A stretch of DNA of 64,000 bases from assembly GCA_016935975.1 (NCBI GenBank), contig JAFGPX010000259.1, forward strand, positions 11,230 through 75,229, read 5' to 3'. How positions within the stretch are numbered: position 1 is the stretch's first letter; every line of letters begins with the position of its first letter. Position numbers and translations under genes: made by a program. This DNA comes from Deltaproteobacteria bacterium. Lineage in GTDB: Bacteria > Myxococcota_A > Polyangia > Fen-1088. The notes beneath the pieces are model-generated. The model did no database searches. It was not told the DNA's origin and saw nothing but the letters and a program-made list of their open reading frames with translations. Positions 3,095-62,860 of this stretch are shown piece after piece.

Positions 3095-5463
<2,369 letters not shown>

Positions 5464-5570
5464 GACGCGGAGCCCGCGGAGGGCGCGGAGCGGGGAAGCG
5501 GAGGGTTCCATGTCCTGCTCCGGACCCTCTCCCGTCTCCGTGCTCTCTGGCTGCTCCGTGCCCTCGTGGT
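5464..5570. repeat. Palindromic intergenic element copy H (purine-rich arm / pyrimidine-rich arm hairpin), immediately after the clpA stop
   Basis: GACGCGGAGCCCGCGGAGGGCGCGGAGCGGGGAAGCGGAGGGTTCC-ATG-TCCTGCTCCGGACCCTCTCCCGTCTCCGTGCTCTCTGG. The arms are imperfect reverse complements and the right arm resembles copies C and E. Confidence 0.5.
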
Positions 5571-5609
5571 TTTTGCATCAGCCGGCCGCCCTGCGCGCTA
5601 TAAGGATTC

Positions 5610-7607: not shown

Positions 7608-7785
7608 GAGCGGGAGCGGCGCATGGCCCGGGAGCCGCCGGCGAGTCTGGCCCGCATTCTTCATCAGCCGCGTTTGGTCAGGGCGTCGTAGCGGGCTAGT
7701 GAACACGTCCACGGGCACGACCTTCTCCGGGTAGCGCGGGATCAGGGTGTCTCGCCCAACCTCCCCTGTGCTAGACATCTCCCCC

Positions 7786-9444
7786 ATGAGCATCACCGCC
7801 TCCGATATCTGGGAAAGGCTCCTAGCTCACCACAAGGCCGTCGCGCCGTTGCACATGCGCGAGCTGTTCGCGCGGGATCCCGAGCGCTTCGCGAAGTTCT
7901 CGCTGCGGCTTGGCGATCTGCTGCTCGACTACTCGAAGAACCGCATCACGGCAGAAACCATGGACCTATTGCGGGCCCTGGCGCGGGAGGCGGGGGTCGA
8001 GTCCATGCGCGACAAGATGTTCGCCGGCGAAACCATCAACTCGACCGAGAAACGGGCGGTCCTGCACGTGGCGCTGCGCAACTTGTCGTCGCGGCCTACC
8101 TGCGTCGGCGGCAAGGACGTCATGCCCGAGGTGCGCGCCGCGCTCAACCACATGAGCGCCTTCTGCGAGTCGGTGCGCAGCGGCGCCTGGACCGGGTACA
8201 CCAAGAAGCCCATGCGCGCCGTCGTCAACCTGGGCATCGGCGGGTCCGACCTCGGACCGGCGATGGTGTCCGAGGCGCTGCGCCCCTACCGGCGCGACGA
8301 TCTGGACCTCTATTTCGTGTCCAACGTCGACGGCTCGCACATTGCCGAGGCCCTCAAGCGCGTCGATCCCGAAACCACGCTCTTCCTCATCGCCTCCAAG
8401 ACCTTCAAGACGCAGGAAACCATGGCCAACGCGCACAGCGCGCGCGAGTGGTTTCTCAAGCAGGCCAAAAACAAAAAGCATATCGCCAAGCACTTCGTTG
8501 CCATATCGACCAACAAGCCGGAAGTCGTTACGGAAGTCGCCAAGTTCGACATCCCCACGGACAACGTCTTCGTCTTCTGGGATTGGGTCGGCGGCCGCTA
8601 CTCGCTGTGGTCTTCCATCGGCCTGTCCATCGCGCTCGGCAGCGGATTCGAGAACTTCCATGCCTTGCTCGAAGGCGCGCACGAGATGGACGAGCATTTC
8701 CGAGCCGCGCCGCTCGAGTGCAATTTGCCCGTCACCTTGGCCTTGCTCGGCGTTTGGTACAACAACTTCTTCGGCGCCGAAACCCACGCCATCCTGCCGT
8801 ACGACCAGTACCTGGCGCGCTTTCCCGCCTACTTGCAGCAAGGCGACATGGAGTCGAACGGCAAGCGGATCACGCGCGACGGCAAGCTCGTGGACTACCA
8901 GACTGGCCCGATCATCTGGGGCGAGCCCGGGACCAACGGCCAGCACGCTTTCTACCAACTCCTGCACCAGGGCACGAAGCTCGTACCGTGCGACTTCCTG
9001 GCCTCGGTGGGCACGCACAACCCGAGAGGCGAGCACCATGCCTTGCTGCTGGCCAATTTCCTGGCTCAGACCGAAGCGCTGATGAAGGGCAAGACGGAGG
9101 CCGAGGCGCGCACCGAGCTGGAAGCCGCCGGCGTGACGGGCGAGGCTCTGACGGCGCTCCTGCCGCACAAGGTGTTCCCCGGCAACAAACCGAGCAACTC
9201 GCTCTTGTACGACAAGCTCGATCCGCGCACGCTGGGCAAGCTCATCGCGCTATACGAGCACAAGATATTCGTGCAAGGGGTCATCTGGAACGTGAACTCG
9301 TACGACCAGTGGGGCGTGGAGCTAGGCAAGAAGCTGGCCGACGCCATCCTGCCCGAGCTGCGCGGCGGCGCCGACGTGTCCTCGCACGATGCTTCCACCA
9401 ACGGCCTCATCAACCAGATCAACCAGCGGCGCCGGCTGGGCTAG
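7786..9444 (+). CDS. pgi: Glucose-6-phosphate isomerase
   Basis: Collinear with E. coli Pgi ([47 protein letters not shown]). The track start 7747 is GTG; the first ATG at 7786 aligns with the E. coli N-terminus. Confidence 0.9.
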
Positions 9445-9460
9445 CGGCCATCCCGGCGAG

Positions 9461-9544
9461 CCAGGAAGAACAAGGAGGAACGCAGACGCAGAGACGGACA
9501 GTCGCCATGGAGTTTCCGGCTCTGTTTCTCTGTTTCTTCCCGTG
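9461..9544. repeat. Palindromic intergenic element copy A, directly after the pgi stop
   Basis: CCAGGAAGAACAAGGAGGAACGCAGACGCAGAGACGGACAG...CCGGCTCTGTTTCTCTGTTTCTTCCCGTG. The left arm is about 90% identical to copy B and the right arm matches copies B and D. Confidence 0.6.
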
Positions 9545-9627
9545 CACACTCCCCAACGGACCTGCCCTGGCGCTAGGACGACAAGCGCCTTGACAGGACG
9601 GCCCGGTTTCCGAATAGTGGCGGCTCC

Positions 9628-9792
9628 ATGGGAAAGCACGACAACCGCAACTCGATGAAGATGCGCCGTCGCAAGGCGCAGGGGAAGCTCAAGGAGCGCC
9701 GCAAGCGGCAGAAGGCCGAGCGTCAGGCGGCCCGCGCCGACGGCAAGCCCGCCAAGAAGTCGCGTCCCGCTCCGGCTCCGGCCAAGGAGTAG
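9628..9792 (+). CDS. Small highly basic ORF (54 aa, MGKHDNRNSMKMRRRKAQGKLKERRKRQKAERQAARADGKPAKKSRPAPAPAKE); not in the ORF track
   Basis: ATG..TAG open frame in the pgi-mutS gap, Lys/Arg-rich with non-random composition; the coding call is uncertain. Confidence 0.3.
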   Translation: MGKHDNRNSMKMRRRKAQGKLKERRKRQKAERQAARADGKPAKKSRPAPAPAKE

Positions 9793-22701: not shown

Positions 22702-22712
22702 GTAGCGTCGGC

Positions 22713-22962
22713 GAGGAAGTCCGTAGAGGGCGCCAGAGGGGGACGAGGGCGCAGAGGCCGGAGCGGATTGCCGCACCGGCCTCGGGAGCCGTGGGGGACA
22801 AAACGGGGTCGTGGCCGCGGTCGCCAACGTCTACGGCCACGGTCACGTAGACGTCCACGACCAGCCATAGGGCGACGCCCACGGCCAGGTTCACGACGTC
22901 GCGCGGGACTCGGGGCCGGCCGCTCTGTGCCCTCGTCCCCCTCTGCGACCTCTACCCTTCCT
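22713..22962. repeat. Palindromic element copy G: about 250 bp with ~47-bp terminal inverted repeats
   Basis: Left TIR GAGGAAGTCCGTAGAGGGCGCCAGAGGGGGACGAGGGCGCAGAGGCCGG; the reverse complement of the right TIR is AGGAAGGGTAGAGGTCGCAGAGGGGGACGAGGGCACAGAGCGGCCGG (about 90% identical). It fills the whole gap between the convergent ompA and exbD genes, and its right end overlaps the exbD stop. Confidence 0.65.
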
Positions 22963-28272: not shown

Positions 28273-29106
28273 CTACCTTGCCAGGAGATGGCTTCCGTGC
28301 ACGTTGCCGAGCGCGGCGAGCATGGTTTGGCGTACGTGGGGGTATTCGACCTCGAGGCGGTCGAGCAACAGCTTGATTTGCTTGCGTTGAGCTTGCGGGC
28401 GTACATCGCACAGCCGGCACGGCAGGAGGGGCACCCTGTGGCGGGCGGCCAACTCCGCCAGGTCGCTTGCCGCGCAGTAGATGAGCGGCCGGATGACCAC
28501 ATGTCGGCGGTCGTCACTGGTCAGACGGGCGGGCATCGCCGCGAGCTTGCCCGCGAAGAAGAGATTGAGGAGCAGGGTTTCCACGGCATCGTCACGGTGG
28601 TGGCCGAGCGCCACCTTGGTGCAGCCGAGATCGTCGGCCACACGGTAGAGAATCGCTCGGCGCAGACGGGCGCACAGTGAGCAGGGCGTCTGCTGCTCGG
28701 CCAGGGTGGCCTTTACGATGCCGTAGGTGTCTTCGCGCACGAGCTTGTGCTCGAAGCCTTGTGCTGCGAGCCACGCCAGAAGCGGCGCCGGATCATGTCC
28801 CGGGTGTCCCTGATCGAGGTGTACCGCGACCAGGCCGAAGGACACTGGTGCGCGTCGGCGCATGGCTTCCAGCAGCAGGAGCAGGGCATAGCTGTCCTTG
28901 CCGCCCGACAGCGCCACCAGGATGCGGTCGCCCGCCGCGATGAGGTCGAAGTCCGCGATGGCCCGCCCCACGTCGTGCAGCAGACGTTTCTTCACCACAG
29001 AGGGTGGGGAGGACACGGAGGGCGGAGGGAAAGGGGGATCCGGATCCGCGCCCTTCCCCTTTCTGTGCTCTCCGTGCTCTCTGTGCTCTCTGTGGTGCAA
29101 GGACAC
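28273..29106 (-). CDS. ttcA: tRNA 2-thiocytidine(32) synthetase TtcA (PP-loop ATPase)
   Basis: Collinear with E. coli TtcA (KRLLHDVGRAIADF..., PP-loop SGGKDS, CxxC pairs). The 5' ~35 codons (HREHREHGEH..., PFPPP) overlap repeat copy E. The track start is GTG; an in-frame GTG at about 28998 is an alternative true start. Confidence 0.75.
   Translation of the reverse strand: MSLHHREHREHGEHRKGKGADPDPPFPPPSVSSPPSVVKKRLLHDVGRAIADFDLIAAGDRILVALSGGKDSYALLLLLEAMRRRAPVSFGLVAVHLDQGHPGHDPAPLLAWLAAQGFEHKLVREDTYGIVKATLAEQQTPCSLCARLRRAILYRVADDLGCTKVALGHHRDDAVETLLLNLFFAGKLAAMPARLTSDDRRHVVIRPLIYCAASDLAELAARHRVPLLPCRLCDVRPQAQRKQIKLLLDRLEVEYPHVRQTMLAALGNVHGSHLLAR
28995..29095. repeat. Palindromic element copy E, with a GGATCCGGATCC centre
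   Basis: CCACAGAGGGTGGGGAGGACACGGAGGGCGGAGGGAAAGGGGGATCCGGATCCGCGCCCTTCCCCTTTCTGTGCTCTCCGTGCTCTCTGTGCTCTCTGTGG. The termini CCACAGAG / CTCTGTGG are inverted repeats. Confidence 0.6.
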
Positions 29107-41924: not shown

Positions 41925-41992
41925 GCGGGGATGTCTGTCGGCAGCCGGGCACCGGAGGGTGGTGAGAAACGAGGGTGGGGTGCAATCCCGGT

Positions 41993-42090
41993 CCTGAAGG
42001 CAAGACAGGGAGGAGGAGAGAAGCAGAGGTGGACAGGAATTGCGGAATGGCGTTGATTCTTCGGCTCTGTTCCTCTGGTTCTTCCTGTTG
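41993..42090. repeat. Palindromic element copy D, between the GH9 stop and the cysE start
   Basis: CCTGAAGGCAAGACAGGGAGGAGGAGAGAAGCAGAGGTGGACAGG...CGGCTCTGTTCCTCTGGTTCTTCCTGTTG. The right arm is nearly identical to copy A's right arm. Confidence 0.6.
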
Positions 42091-42133
42091 AAACTCAGGT
42101 GACCGGCATTGGGGCTGAGAGTAGATTTCAGCC

Positions 42134-44337: not shown

Positions 44338-44340
44338 GAC

Positions 44341-44470
44341 GGGTACGGTGGGAAGGGCGGAGCGCACAGAGGGGACAGGGAGGGCGCGGGGAGGGAAAGC
44401 GCCGGGTTTGGCGAGAGCTACGCCTTACCCGGCTCAGCGCTCTCCGCTCGCTCTGCGCCCTCTCCGGTCC
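44341..44470. repeat. Palindromic element copy F (degenerate); its pyrimidine arm runs into the 3' end of lipA
   Basis: GGGAAGGGCGGAGCGCACAGAGGGGACAGGGAGGGCGCGGGGAGGGAAAGCGCC... then GCTCTCCGCTCGCTCTGCGCCCTCTCCGG inside the lipA C-terminal codons. It resembles the TIR of copy G. Confidence 0.4.
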
Positions 44471-47377: not shown

Positions 47378-48267
47378 TGTTCCGCCTGGCTCAAGTCAGC
47401 GATCCGCACTTCCGGTCTTTCCGCCCGGCCAGCCTGCGCCAGCTACTCGGCAAGCGCGCCATCGGCGCTCTCAACCTGCTTCTGCGCCGCCGCTTCAAGC
47501 ACCGCATGGAGCTTCTGCAGGCGCTGCTCGTGGATGTGCGCGGCCGGCCCCTCGATCACCTGGCGCTGACCGGCGATCTGTGCAACGTAGCGCTTGCGTC
47601 CGAGTGGAACGCGGCTCTGCGCTGGATCGAGGCCACCGGTCTTTCGCCCGAGCAGGTGACGGTGATTCCCGGCAACCACGACGCCTACGTTCCCGAGGTG
47701 ATCGAGCAGGGCACCTTCGAGCGCTTGTTCGCTGCCTACCTGACCGCGGATCTGCGCGCTGGCGCGGAGACCTATCCTTTCGCGCGTTTCCGCGGTGACG
47801 TGGCTCTCGTGTGCGCGAGCACCGCGGTGCCCACCGGCGATCTCGGTGCCTGGGGGCGCATGGGCGAGGCGCAGCTCGCTCGCCTGGAATCGTTGCTGAT
47901 GATGCCGGAGGTGAAAGCCCGCTGCCGCCTGCTGCTCATCCACCACCCACCGCAAGTGAACCGGCACGGCGAGCAATTGAACTTGAAGGACCGCGAGGCA
48001 TTGCAAGACGTGCTCTCGCGTGCGGGGGCCGACTTGGTCATGCATGGCCACGACCATCGCGACTTTTTCAAGGAGCTGCCGGGACCGGGCCGTAGCCGCA
48101 TTCCCGTGGTGGGCGTGGGCTCGGCATCCTACGCCGGCGGCCCCGACCGTCGCGCGCGCTATCACATCTACGAGATCGAGGGATCGAGCATCACGGTCGC
48201 CACCTACGTCCACGACCCGGCGACGAGAAGGTTCGTCGAGTACCGACGCAAGCAGGTGGCGGCGTAG
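47377..48267 (+). CDS. Calcineurin-like metallophosphoesterase
   Basis: SDPHF...GDLCN...GNHD...HHPP...GHDH motifs. Track start 47374 is TTG; the ATG at 47377 overlaps the upstream stop (TGATG). Confidence 0.7.
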
Positions 48268-48291
48268 CGGCCTTGCCCCGATACCGGTCAG

Positions 48292-48388
48292 CCAGGGGAA
48301 AACAAGGGGGAACGGAGACGCAGAGACGGACCGGAATGATCGAAACGCCTCTGATTCTGAGGCTCGGTTCCTGTGTTCTTCCCTGTGG
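48292..48388. repeat. Palindromic element copy B, between the phosphoesterase stop and the convergent glycine-zipper gene stop
   Basis: CCAGGGGAAAACAAGGGGGAACGGAGACGCAGAGACGGACCGG...CTCGGTTCCTGTGTTCTTCCCTGTGG. The termini CCAGGG / CCCTGTGG are inverted. Confidence 0.65.
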
Positions 48389-48397
48389 GTGCTTTTC

Positions 48398-48954
48398 CTA
48401 GAAGCGCCCGACGAGCGCGGGCACGAAGGCATGGCTGCCGTCGGACTGACGGACGGGGGCCAAGGTGGCGGAGTACTTGCGGTAGCCCTCGACGAAGCCG
48501 ACGGCAAAGCCGCCTACCGTGCCGGTGAGCACGCCGATGGAGGCGCCGAGCAAGGCGTACTCGAACTCCTTGGCGTAGATGGCGGCCATACCGCCAGCGA
48601 TGCCGCCCAGCACCGCGCCCAGCCCGGCCCCGTACAAGCCGTCGCGCATGACGTAGGCGTTGCGATGCGGCTTGTGCTGGGCCATGTCCACGACGCCCAG
48701 GGTCAGGCCGAGCACGGCCCCCGAGAGGGCGCCTATGCCCGTGCCGTAGGCGACGGGTTTCCACCCACCGGACTTGTCCCAGGTGTCGCTGCGCGAGAAC
48801 ATGTAGCCGGTGGCGGCGCCGGCGATGGCGCCGACGAGCAGGCCTTGGTAGGCGCCGTCGAAGACCGTGGGCGGCGGCAGATCCGCGGCATGCGCCGGAC
48901 GGCCAAGGCCTACGACCAGGGCGCAGGCGATTGCCGAATAGGCACAGCGACGGG

Positions 48955-62718: not shown

Positions 62719-62751
62719 CTCTCCTCCTGGGCCGTCTGGGATCTCCGCCAC

Positions 62752-62860
62752 AAAGGAAACGGAGAACGCAGAGGCCGGAAAACAAGAAGGGTTCCGGATC
62801 CAAGATCCGAACCCTTCCTCTTCTCCCTCCGTCTCCGTATCCTCTGTTGTTTCTCCCTGG
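62752..62860. repeat. Palindromic element copy C, between the epimerase start and the EF-G stop
   Basis: AAAGGAAACGGAGAACGCAGAGGCCGGAAAACAAGAAGGGTTCCGGATCCAAGATCCGAACCCTTCCTCTTCTCCCTCCGTCTCCGTATCCTCTGTTGTTTCTCCCTGG. It has nested inverted repeats and shares the CCGGATCC centre with copy E. Confidence 0.6.

Follow-up and report, generated by a model that had tools for sequence, protein, structure and literature searches.

Eight palindromic intergenic elements, each with a purine-rich 5' arm, a variable loop and a pyrimidine-rich 3' arm, are dispersed over the stretch of Deltaproteobacteria contig JAFGPX010000259.1 analyzed here (the window: the whole 64,000 nt, 67% GC, covering only part of the source genome). 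On balance, we lean toward the view that these eight, lettered A–H by coordinate, are lineage-specific insertions of non-coding palindromic repeats belonging to a widespread and apparently uncatalogued superfamily, and that the repeats are mobile and likely act as RNA hairpins at the 3' ends of transcripts. The elements have spread as units to unrelated loci, and they land at or overlap the ends of genes, after stop codons; now and then the stop, the start or a few of the terminal codons come from the element itself. The alignments further indicate that the complementarity of the two arms has been maintained through compensatory changes.

Results

Eight Elements at the Ends of Genes

The gene map of the window was drawn from third-position GC and then checked with Pfam and with the gene calls on syntenic contigs. 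An earlier note, made from the sequence of the window, had listed eight palindromic copies, and all eight stand at the sites given there (Table 1): the purine-rich 5' arm and the pyrimidine-rich 3' arm were found in 8/8, all of the copies fall on intergenic runs that are at least 80% purine, and folding with RNAfold against dinucleotide shuffles gave z-scores of -4.1 to -6.3 for A, D and H and of -1.9 to -2.6 for B, E, F and G. The sites were right, but the ends had been drawn too short for B, E and G (the last being the copy flagged in that note), and the copy letters used there were evidently out of coordinate order.

Table 1. Palindromic elements of the window, with fold and with scores against the type-1 model (R1) and the covariance model from outside sequences (R2).
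Copy	Position	Strand	Setting and parts	Fold	R1	R2
A	5452..5575	+	hairpin 5466-5560; ancestral T5 run 5571-5575	-65 kcal/mol, z -4.1		26 bits, E 2e-5 to 2e-4
B (type-1)	9445..9573	+	129 nt after pgi; core 9461-9544; bounded by TAG 9442-9444 (pgi stop) and TAG 9574-9576		93.8 bits	
C	22702..22962	.	composite, in convergent OmpA-like/ExbD gap; purine/pyrimidine outer arms at 22713-22768 and 22915-22962	-165 kcal/mol		
D	28991..29099	.	most canonical member; divergent gap	z -6.3		50.5 bits, E ~1e-11
E (type-1)	41976..42121	+	after GH9 gene; outer stem CAATCCCGGTC/GACCGGCATTG; core 41993-42090; ancestral TAG 42122-42124 directly 3'	extended fold -63 kcal/mol	114 bits	20.4 bits, E 1e-3 to 7e-3
F	44338..44470	.	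between convergent MATCAP-like and lipA genes; hairpin 44373-44470			
G (type-1)	48268..48398	+	convergent gap, insert of 131 nt with core 48292-48388; TAG on either side (48265-48267, 48399-48401)		103 bits	
H	62749..62860	-	starts right after EF-G stop (TAG, then CCAGGG, minus strand)	z -4.4; minus strand better by 13.4 kcal/mol		26.9 bits, E 1e-5 to 1e-4

The elements had been described as flush against stop codons, and a stop does adjoin seven of the eight; the exception is D, which lies in a divergent gap and adjoins the GTG start of ttcA. Convergent gaps hold three of the eight, in keeping with the claim that the elements often sit between convergent genes. That almost every intergenic gap over 90 bp carries one was an overstatement: about 8 of 19 do (convergent 3/4, tandem 4/9, divergent 1/6). 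TAG stands directly 5' of 9 of 10 Myxococcota copies, as GTAG in six, but a specific association with TAG was rejected as not significant, because TAG makes up 33 of the 54 stops of the called genes overall (TGA 20, TAA 1). Such a dominance of TAG (61% of stops) is in itself unusual at 67% GC.

Several elements have become part of the genes that they adjoin. The left terminus of A, TTCACCACATAG (canonical form TTCACCACAGAG), provides the final codons and the TAG stop of clpA; the last three codons plus TAG (5452-5463) match the element terminus (CCACATAG, where the canonical form is CCACAGAG). The right arm of F (44434-44466) encodes the final ten residues of LipA (RRGRRASGER*). Copy D runs from CCACAGAG to CTCTGTGG between flanking TTCA and TGCA, and its left terminus includes, on the minus strand, the GTG start of ttcA (28995), the identical start being called by NCBI for a 240-aa TtcA (P0121). 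This annotated GTG and the second codon (28991-29000, minus) lie inside the terminal GTGGTGAA of D, in the last base pairs of the stem, so that the hairpin would mask the start codon if it were transcribed in the 5' untranslated region (UTR); the N-terminus of TtcA differs in relatives. Copy H is not flush with the start of the next gene: about 35 nt separate its end from the true start of the epimerase (ATG 62718, preceded by AGGAGG), which lies downstream.

Copy C is composite: its outer arms keep the repeated units described below, and its center (about 22790-22905) is a second, unrelated hairpin of GTSGTGGMC-like units with a period of about 6 nt. A hairpin of the same kind as this center fills the lipA/MATCAP gap of locus L001 (11050-11150).

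Arms Built From a Short Repeated Unit

A unit of 8-9 nt, repeated directly three to five times, makes up each arm; it reads CACRGAG in the 5' arm and CTCYGTG in the 3' arm. The arms enclose a variable loop, and the termini resemble TTCACCAC...GTGGTGAA. Drift of the unit to CGCGGAG or GCAGAG is common in this 67% GC genome. The arms contain 28 instances of CAGAG, where 3.4 would be expected (z 13.5), and 18 of the 20 arms have one or more; the density of CRGAG/CTCYG is 18-20 per kb inside the elements vs. 1.7-1.9 per kb outside (about ten-fold). The motifs are spaced by 9 nt in 10 of 22 cases, by 18 nt in four and by 8 nt in three; an arm thus amounts to a short array of direct repeats, with the opposite arm as its inverted copy. 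Copy D is fully canonical, CRGAG units are kept in H, F, B, E and G, and A has kept the canonical terminus along with the 9-nt spacing of its CRGAG units while the units themselves drifted to CGCGGAG.

Arms that are nearly purine-only or pyrimidine-only and do not fold on themselves would leave only the arm-against-arm fold available: taken in isolation, the arms reach 0 to -5 kcal/mol, apart from the left arm of A (-17). In the alignment of B, E, G and their relatives, pairing persists at 45-57% when the register is shifted by 1-3 nt, so that the hairpin would tolerate indels and, via G-U pairs, transitions. A resemblance of TTCACCACA to a DnaA box (7/9 positions) was judged a coincidence.

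The Type-1 Subfamily

Copies B, E and G form a diverged subfamily, type-1, with an extra outer segment. Blastn matches among them range from E 1e-8 to 1e-4 (B-G 1e-8, B-E 9e-5). The consensus that the earlier note had quoted is the left arm of G, found again in B (92% over 36 nt, E 1e-8) and in E (73% over 88 nt, E 2e-7), and the pairwise likenesses described there were reproduced: a common core in G and B, a common right arm in G and E, and a common CCGGATCC center in D and H. A pattern drawn across both arms of B, E and G had three matches in the window and none in 100 shuffles, and a pattern scan of metagenomes yielded two further members (L081 and L086), both in convergent gaps unrelated to the genes of the window; the other six of the eight metagenome matches were chance or coding. 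The five copies are 73% identical, with homology that runs through the loop and leftward to the stop codon of the upstream gene. R1, the model of this subfamily, recovers just these five across some 300 kb of related Myxococcota sequence, the next-best matches being other elements of the window, and no type-1 copy was found in the close relatives L089-L099 (178 kb).

As a claim of one family, then, the earlier reading holds by pairwise similarity for B, E and G; A, D, F, H and C match one another only at E 0.001-0.06, despite which their best blastn matches are nearly always other elements.

Filled and Empty Sites in Relatives

The closest GTDB species representative (L001) is fully syntenic across 20 kb, with a LipA identity of just 78%; closer syntenic relatives were available from metagenomes (transketolase 85-88%, TtcA 78% and PGI 83-84% identical). 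At the orthologous sites in L001 and five of these closer relatives the elements are mostly absent, with unrelated hairpins in their place, and empty sites were found for A, B, D, E, F and G.

The clearest case is G. In L092 the convergent stops overlap in GGGC-TAG-AAGCGCCCG, and the window reads GCG-TAG-(131 nt)-TAG-AAGCGCCCG at the same place: the 131 nt of copy G were inserted exactly, the TAG being duplicated on either side and each gene keeping a stop. The site is empty in L094 as well, and it holds unrelated hairpins in L089, L090 and L091. In L089, L090 and L092 the MATCAP and lipA genes end 3 nt apart or overlapping, which identifies F as an insertion too. Copy D is absent from L095 and L097, where the neighboring promoter-like GCGCTAGAATAGTGTGC is conserved; A is absent from L098 and L099 and sits in the window between the clpA TAG and the ancestral T-run. 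At the site of B, L099 has only TAA-GCTGC before a conserved TTGACA promoter where the window has TAG-(129 nt)-TAG, and L098 carries a different insert, likewise between TAGs. Copy E replaces an Smr-domain gene found in all of the relatives examined (GH9/hexapeptide transferase gap, 41925-42133).

Copies C and H are older than the others. The right arm of C is conserved in L095 and partly in L097, with a compensatory change from CAGAG/CTCTG to CGGAG/CTCCG, and a diverged hairpin of H's design, barely alignable with H, follows the EF-G stop in L089.

The same convergent and post-stop sites carry unrelated hairpin repeats in relatives (L091:12560-12680; L001:6365 and 6460; L089:12560-12665; L098:11630-11800), for example tandem GCGTGGCTGCCTCTCCCCGC.GCGCGGGGCGAGGC or two copies of GGGGCGGGTTTSAAACCCGCCCC; such gene ends have the look of hot spots for insertion. 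Two other features of the neighborhood were recorded. Missing from the window (7608-7746) is an M20 peptidase gene that every syntenic relative has between the 665-aa gene and pgi, and the pgi-mutS gap (about 9590-9770) holds a small ORF for a basic 53-aa protein with the promoter TTGACA-17-GAATAG, which is conserved and called as a gene in L098 and L099.

A Family Found Across Phyla

The earlier note had proposed a search of Myxococcota genomes, but the family is not confined to that phylum. A Verrucomicrobia locus (L009) carries a purine/pyrimidine hairpin with the termini of copy D, TTAACCACAGAG...CTCTGTGGTT, and a scan of IMG/VR with a three-unit, 20-base pattern seeded from D (CCACAGAG-N1-2-CACRGAG-N1-2-CACRGAG) matched at least 120 stretches vs. 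about 0.1 expected by chance. From these stretches alone, with no window sequence, we built the covariance model R2. Besides the window copies in Table 1, R2 recognizes two type-1 copies outside the window (L081, 33.7 bits; L086, 27.2 bits), and among 74 unrelated species loci it matches in Verrucomicrobia (two elements), Anaerolineaceae (Chloroflexota), Vicinamibacterales (two) and another Acidobacteriota metagenome-assembled genome (MAG), with the unit variants CACAGAG, CACGGAG, CACGAAG and CACGAAA. It is through this model, made from outside sequences, that the window copies can probably be tied to a common superfamily. Of 80 species loci of 20 kb drawn at random, about 7 carry an element of this class.

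An alignment of 22 sequences from the wider family (A6) gives the consensus ATTCACCACAGAG-ACACAGAG-ACACAGAGAA...loop...TTCTCTGTG-TCTCTGTG-CCTCTGTGGTGAAT for the paired elements. In it, 96.6% of cells are paired and 15 cells are compensatory vs. 6.8 in shuffles, none of 500 shuffles reaching 15. The median length is 98 nt, the GC of the loci is 0.51-0.70, the flanks are TTCA/TGAA, and the palindrome extends 0-10 nt into A/T-rich flanking sequence. In 20 of 28 IMG/VR elements the stop of a long ORF lies about 1-20 nt from one end.

One IMG/VR contig (L129:5740-6125) has a head-to-tail array of three units of about 120 nt with GGCGGCTAGGAAGAAAACAAGATGA before each. Two Acidobacteriota loci have purine/pyrimidine hairpins of other short units right after stops, (GCAGGGA)n at L036:15708-15846 and CAGGGAT/CAGGGGT at L072:314-409, and R2 has no match at either.

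Discussion

A Probably Mobile Repeat That May Act as an RNA Hairpin

We favor, then, a reading in which the elements would be non-autonomous mobile DNA, moved by some enzyme into gene ends. Because the elements sit inside 3' UTRs, the transcript of each would fold into one long unbranched hairpin, and this hairpin may serve as a 3'-end structure, whether as a barrier to exonucleases, as a processing site or as an aid to termination. The strand preference of the tandem-gap elements points the same way: the sense strand folds 11-19 kcal/mol better in four of five (A, E, H and the copy in L089; the fifth is neutral), and G-U pairs number 23:10 on the sense vs. the antisense strand. A role at the RNA level is the likelier, though unproven, reading.

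A number of results weigh against this account. Some concern the RNA: the sense-strand preference is absent among 18 IMG/VR elements (9 vs. 9, with orientation taken from crude ORF calls), the G-U excess of the window could also be produced by a transcription-linked mutation bias, D lies in a promoter/5' region rather than a 3' UTR, and most copies have no U-tract, which makes classical intrinsic termination unlikely. Others concern mobility: no transposase or autonomous partner was found in the window or in four arm-flanked ORF candidates between distant arm pairs, target-site duplication was seen in 0 of 33 wider-family elements, and in the window TAG...TAG flanks are clear for G alone (exact against the empty site in L092) and suggestive for B, with no duplication at A, D, F or H. 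The last concern membership. The type-1 alignment has no covariation above shuffles, because purine/pyrimidine arms pair equally well after shuffling; and the single family that the earlier note saw in the copies is supported by R2 for D, H, A and E but not for B, G and F taken individually (E 2-4; F, about 2), with no match for C.

We can entertain, more tentatively, a bolder version in which the elements are a distinct class of cross-phylum mobile 3'-end module, carried by Myxococcota, Verrucomicrobiota, Acidobacteriota, Chloroflexota and the phages of these, that inserts at stop codons and whose unit is recognized by a dedicated factor. Such a factor could be an unusual transposase or a sequence-specific RNA-binding protein of termination or processing, and the module could then be neither a REP, a classical MITE nor an intrinsic terminator.

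Somewhat less probable again, and on the whole unlikely, is that the elements act as DNA: the arrays of the 9-bp CACRGAG unit would be bound by a protein (a transposase, a nucleoid protein or a gyrase-like factor, for instance) or would adopt a cruciform or other non-B form, and position at gene ends would reflect no more than tolerance of insertion. A conserved unit recurring every 8-9 nt, a feature of multi-site transposon ends, suits this reading, as do the near-perfect palindromy of the stems (96.6% paired), the even strand split of the wider sample and the place of D in a divergent promoter region; the purine/pyrimidine-segregated BoxC/PIT repeats of E. coli, moreover, were found to have neither promoter nor terminator activity (PMC4666352). 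However, the G-T mismatches of the tandem-gap copies would weaken a DNA cruciform and pair in sense-strand RNA, 20 of 28 wider-family elements lie just 3' of ORFs, and no candidate protein was identified.

It is unlikely, though not by much more, that these are REP/REPIN-like elements moved by a Y1 (HUH) tyrosine transposase (RAYT/TIRYT) through single-stranded hairpin insertion without target duplication. The 0/33 count of duplications and the position of 9 of 10 Myxococcota copies directly 3' of TAG (six of GTAG) favor such a mechanism, and GTAG-tagged REPs do donate TAG stops and lie 3' of ORFs, with some Y1 transposases flanked by families of long terminal inverted repeats (TIRs) (PMC3733652). 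The elements here, however, measure 85-145 nt with stems of 30-45 bp, where REPs have 20-40 bp; their arms are not themselves palindromic and so make no REP doublet; the TAG is the stop codon of the host gene and the commonest stop here; the wider-family flanks are TTCA/TGAA, not GTAG; and a Y1 transposase was not seen in the vicinity of any copy.

Very improbable, and already largely refuted, is a separate origin for each copy as an ordinary terminator or stabilizer hairpin, alike through functional and compositional constraint. It would account for the placement at gene 3' ends, the ancestral T-run after A, the other, unrelated hairpins at the same sites in relatives, and the pair formed by H and its L089 counterpart, hardly alignable despite a common design and position. 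It does not account for homology among B, E, G, L081 and L086 that covers loops and flanks at unrelated loci, for the exact 131-nt insertion of G, for a 20-base pattern that recurs at least 120 times in unrelated contigs, or for the match of D to a model made from other organisms (E 1e-11). A GC-rich, low-complexity coincidence, which the earlier note had named as what would undo its claim, is refuted: the weak pairwise matches of A, D, F, H and C and the abundance of similar-sized chance repeats in the window do speak for it, but the blastn values among B, E and G, the type-1 pattern (three matches vs. none in 100 shuffles), the CAGAG enrichment, the IMG/VR stretches and the R2 scores leave it no room.

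Comparison With Known Repeats

Among known families, classical MITEs (short for miniature inverted-repeat transposable elements) come closest, the elements having terminal inverted repeats, a length within 50-500 bp, no coding capacity and multiple dispersed copies. ERIC/IRU, Correia/NEMIS and RUP elements are 70-300 bp long and non-coding, with long inverted termini, a variable center and many dispersed, insertion-polymorphic copies; they adjoin coding regions, and their transcript is one long hairpin. The window elements resemble these in size, inverted termini, variable center, dispersal, polymorphism and a hairpin at the gene end, but their termini are arrays of an 8-9-nt unit and not a unique TIR, and, unlike classical MITEs, they show no consistent target-site duplication and are spread over several phyla and virus-flagged contigs. 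The proposal of a MITE in the earlier note stands, then, for the inverted termini and the dispersal; a target-site duplication appears at G and probably at B. We know of no insertion sequence related to these elements.

The ERIC/IRU, Correia/NEMIS and RUP class is listed in PMC3733652, which also describes REPs as 20-40 bp palindromes with a GTAG or CGTC tag that lie 3' of ORFs and can donate TAG stops. Like REPs, BIMEs and REPINs, our elements lie 3' of ORFs in tandem and convergent gaps, can supply TAG stops and mostly lack target duplication, and the RNA-hairpin action that is thought to hold for REP/BIME is the one proposed here. Identity with REPs or REPINs was nonetheless rejected, on the 20-40 bp unit size and on self-palindromy: besides the difference in length and stem, the TAG 5' of the copies is the host stop and makes a doubtful tag, no RAYT was found in the 64 kb, and where a REPIN is a doublet of REP palindromes, these arms cannot fold alone. 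What survives of the suggested REP/MITE affinity is dispersed, insertion-polymorphic, non-coding palindromes at gene ends, and in that sense the earlier reading was broadly right, for a family that is much wider and has a distinctive repeated-unit architecture.

The BoxC/PIT/TMECO triplex motifs of enterobacteria are also intergenic, dispersed and G/C-rich, with purine/pyrimidine-segregated arms and copy numbers that vary between close relatives. TMECO, however, has the form CCCTCNCCC-N3-6-GGGNGAGGG-N3-GGGNGAGGG, in which the pyrimidine arm comes first, the stems measure 9 nt and a third strand takes part (PMC4666352), whereas the window elements have the purine arm 5' on either strand and much longer stems; no match to BoxC/PIT/TMECO was found in the window on either strand, even for the two-block hairpin. 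A Deltaproteobacteria MAG has BoxC/TMECO-like blocks at L051:10906-10974 (CCCTCGCCCTCC..GGAGGGAGAGG..GGTGAGGGTGG..CCCTCACCCTCGCCCTCTCCC), a different segregated repeat.

The elements share with intrinsic (Rho-independent) terminators a strong hairpin right after the stop, followed in A by T5 and in G, after 6 nt, by T4. They differ in mostly having no U-tract, in stems that are three to five times longer and in a sequence conserved across loci and phyla. The terminator role suggested earlier thus fails in its canonical form for most copies, A being the one followed by a T5 run, and a scan of the segment at 40-50 kb for canonical terminators returned 2 sites vs. 4.3 in shuffles, none of them at E, F or G. 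Integron attC sites were also rejected, with no RYYYAAC/GTTRRRY core sites in or within 10 nt of any copy; the genes that flank the copies are syntenic housekeeping genes.

The family had not been recognized in the earlier note, and our searches agree. Rfam 15 gave no match at the gathering threshold for the window and six other carrier loci, and permissive searches gave only sub-threshold look-alikes of miRNA precursors; BLAST against plasmids found no match. Literature searches on Myxococcota repeats and on the consensus strings returned nothing relevant (for the strings, only unrelated primers). Absent from Rfam and with no description found by sequence string, the element is apparently uncatalogued.

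Significance

Judging by these matches, the element is more widespread than the earlier note supposed, its carriers belonging to four or more bacterial phyla and including many contigs flagged as viral. It reshapes the ends of genes, as the clpA stop, the annotated ttcA start and the LipA tail illustrate. ORFs run through the elements because the arms are almost without stop codons, and systematic mis-annotation of starts and stops in MAGs will therefore follow. Since presence and absence vary between close relatives, the elements can serve as strain markers and are a likely cause of assembly breaks. Were the transcript to prove a terminator or a site of processing, a gap would be filled for high-GC and soil phyla, where canonical hairpin-plus-U terminators are scarce, and the engineering of those phyla would gain a portable part; and a new mechanism of mobilization that targets stop codons, if true, would be of interest to transposon biology.

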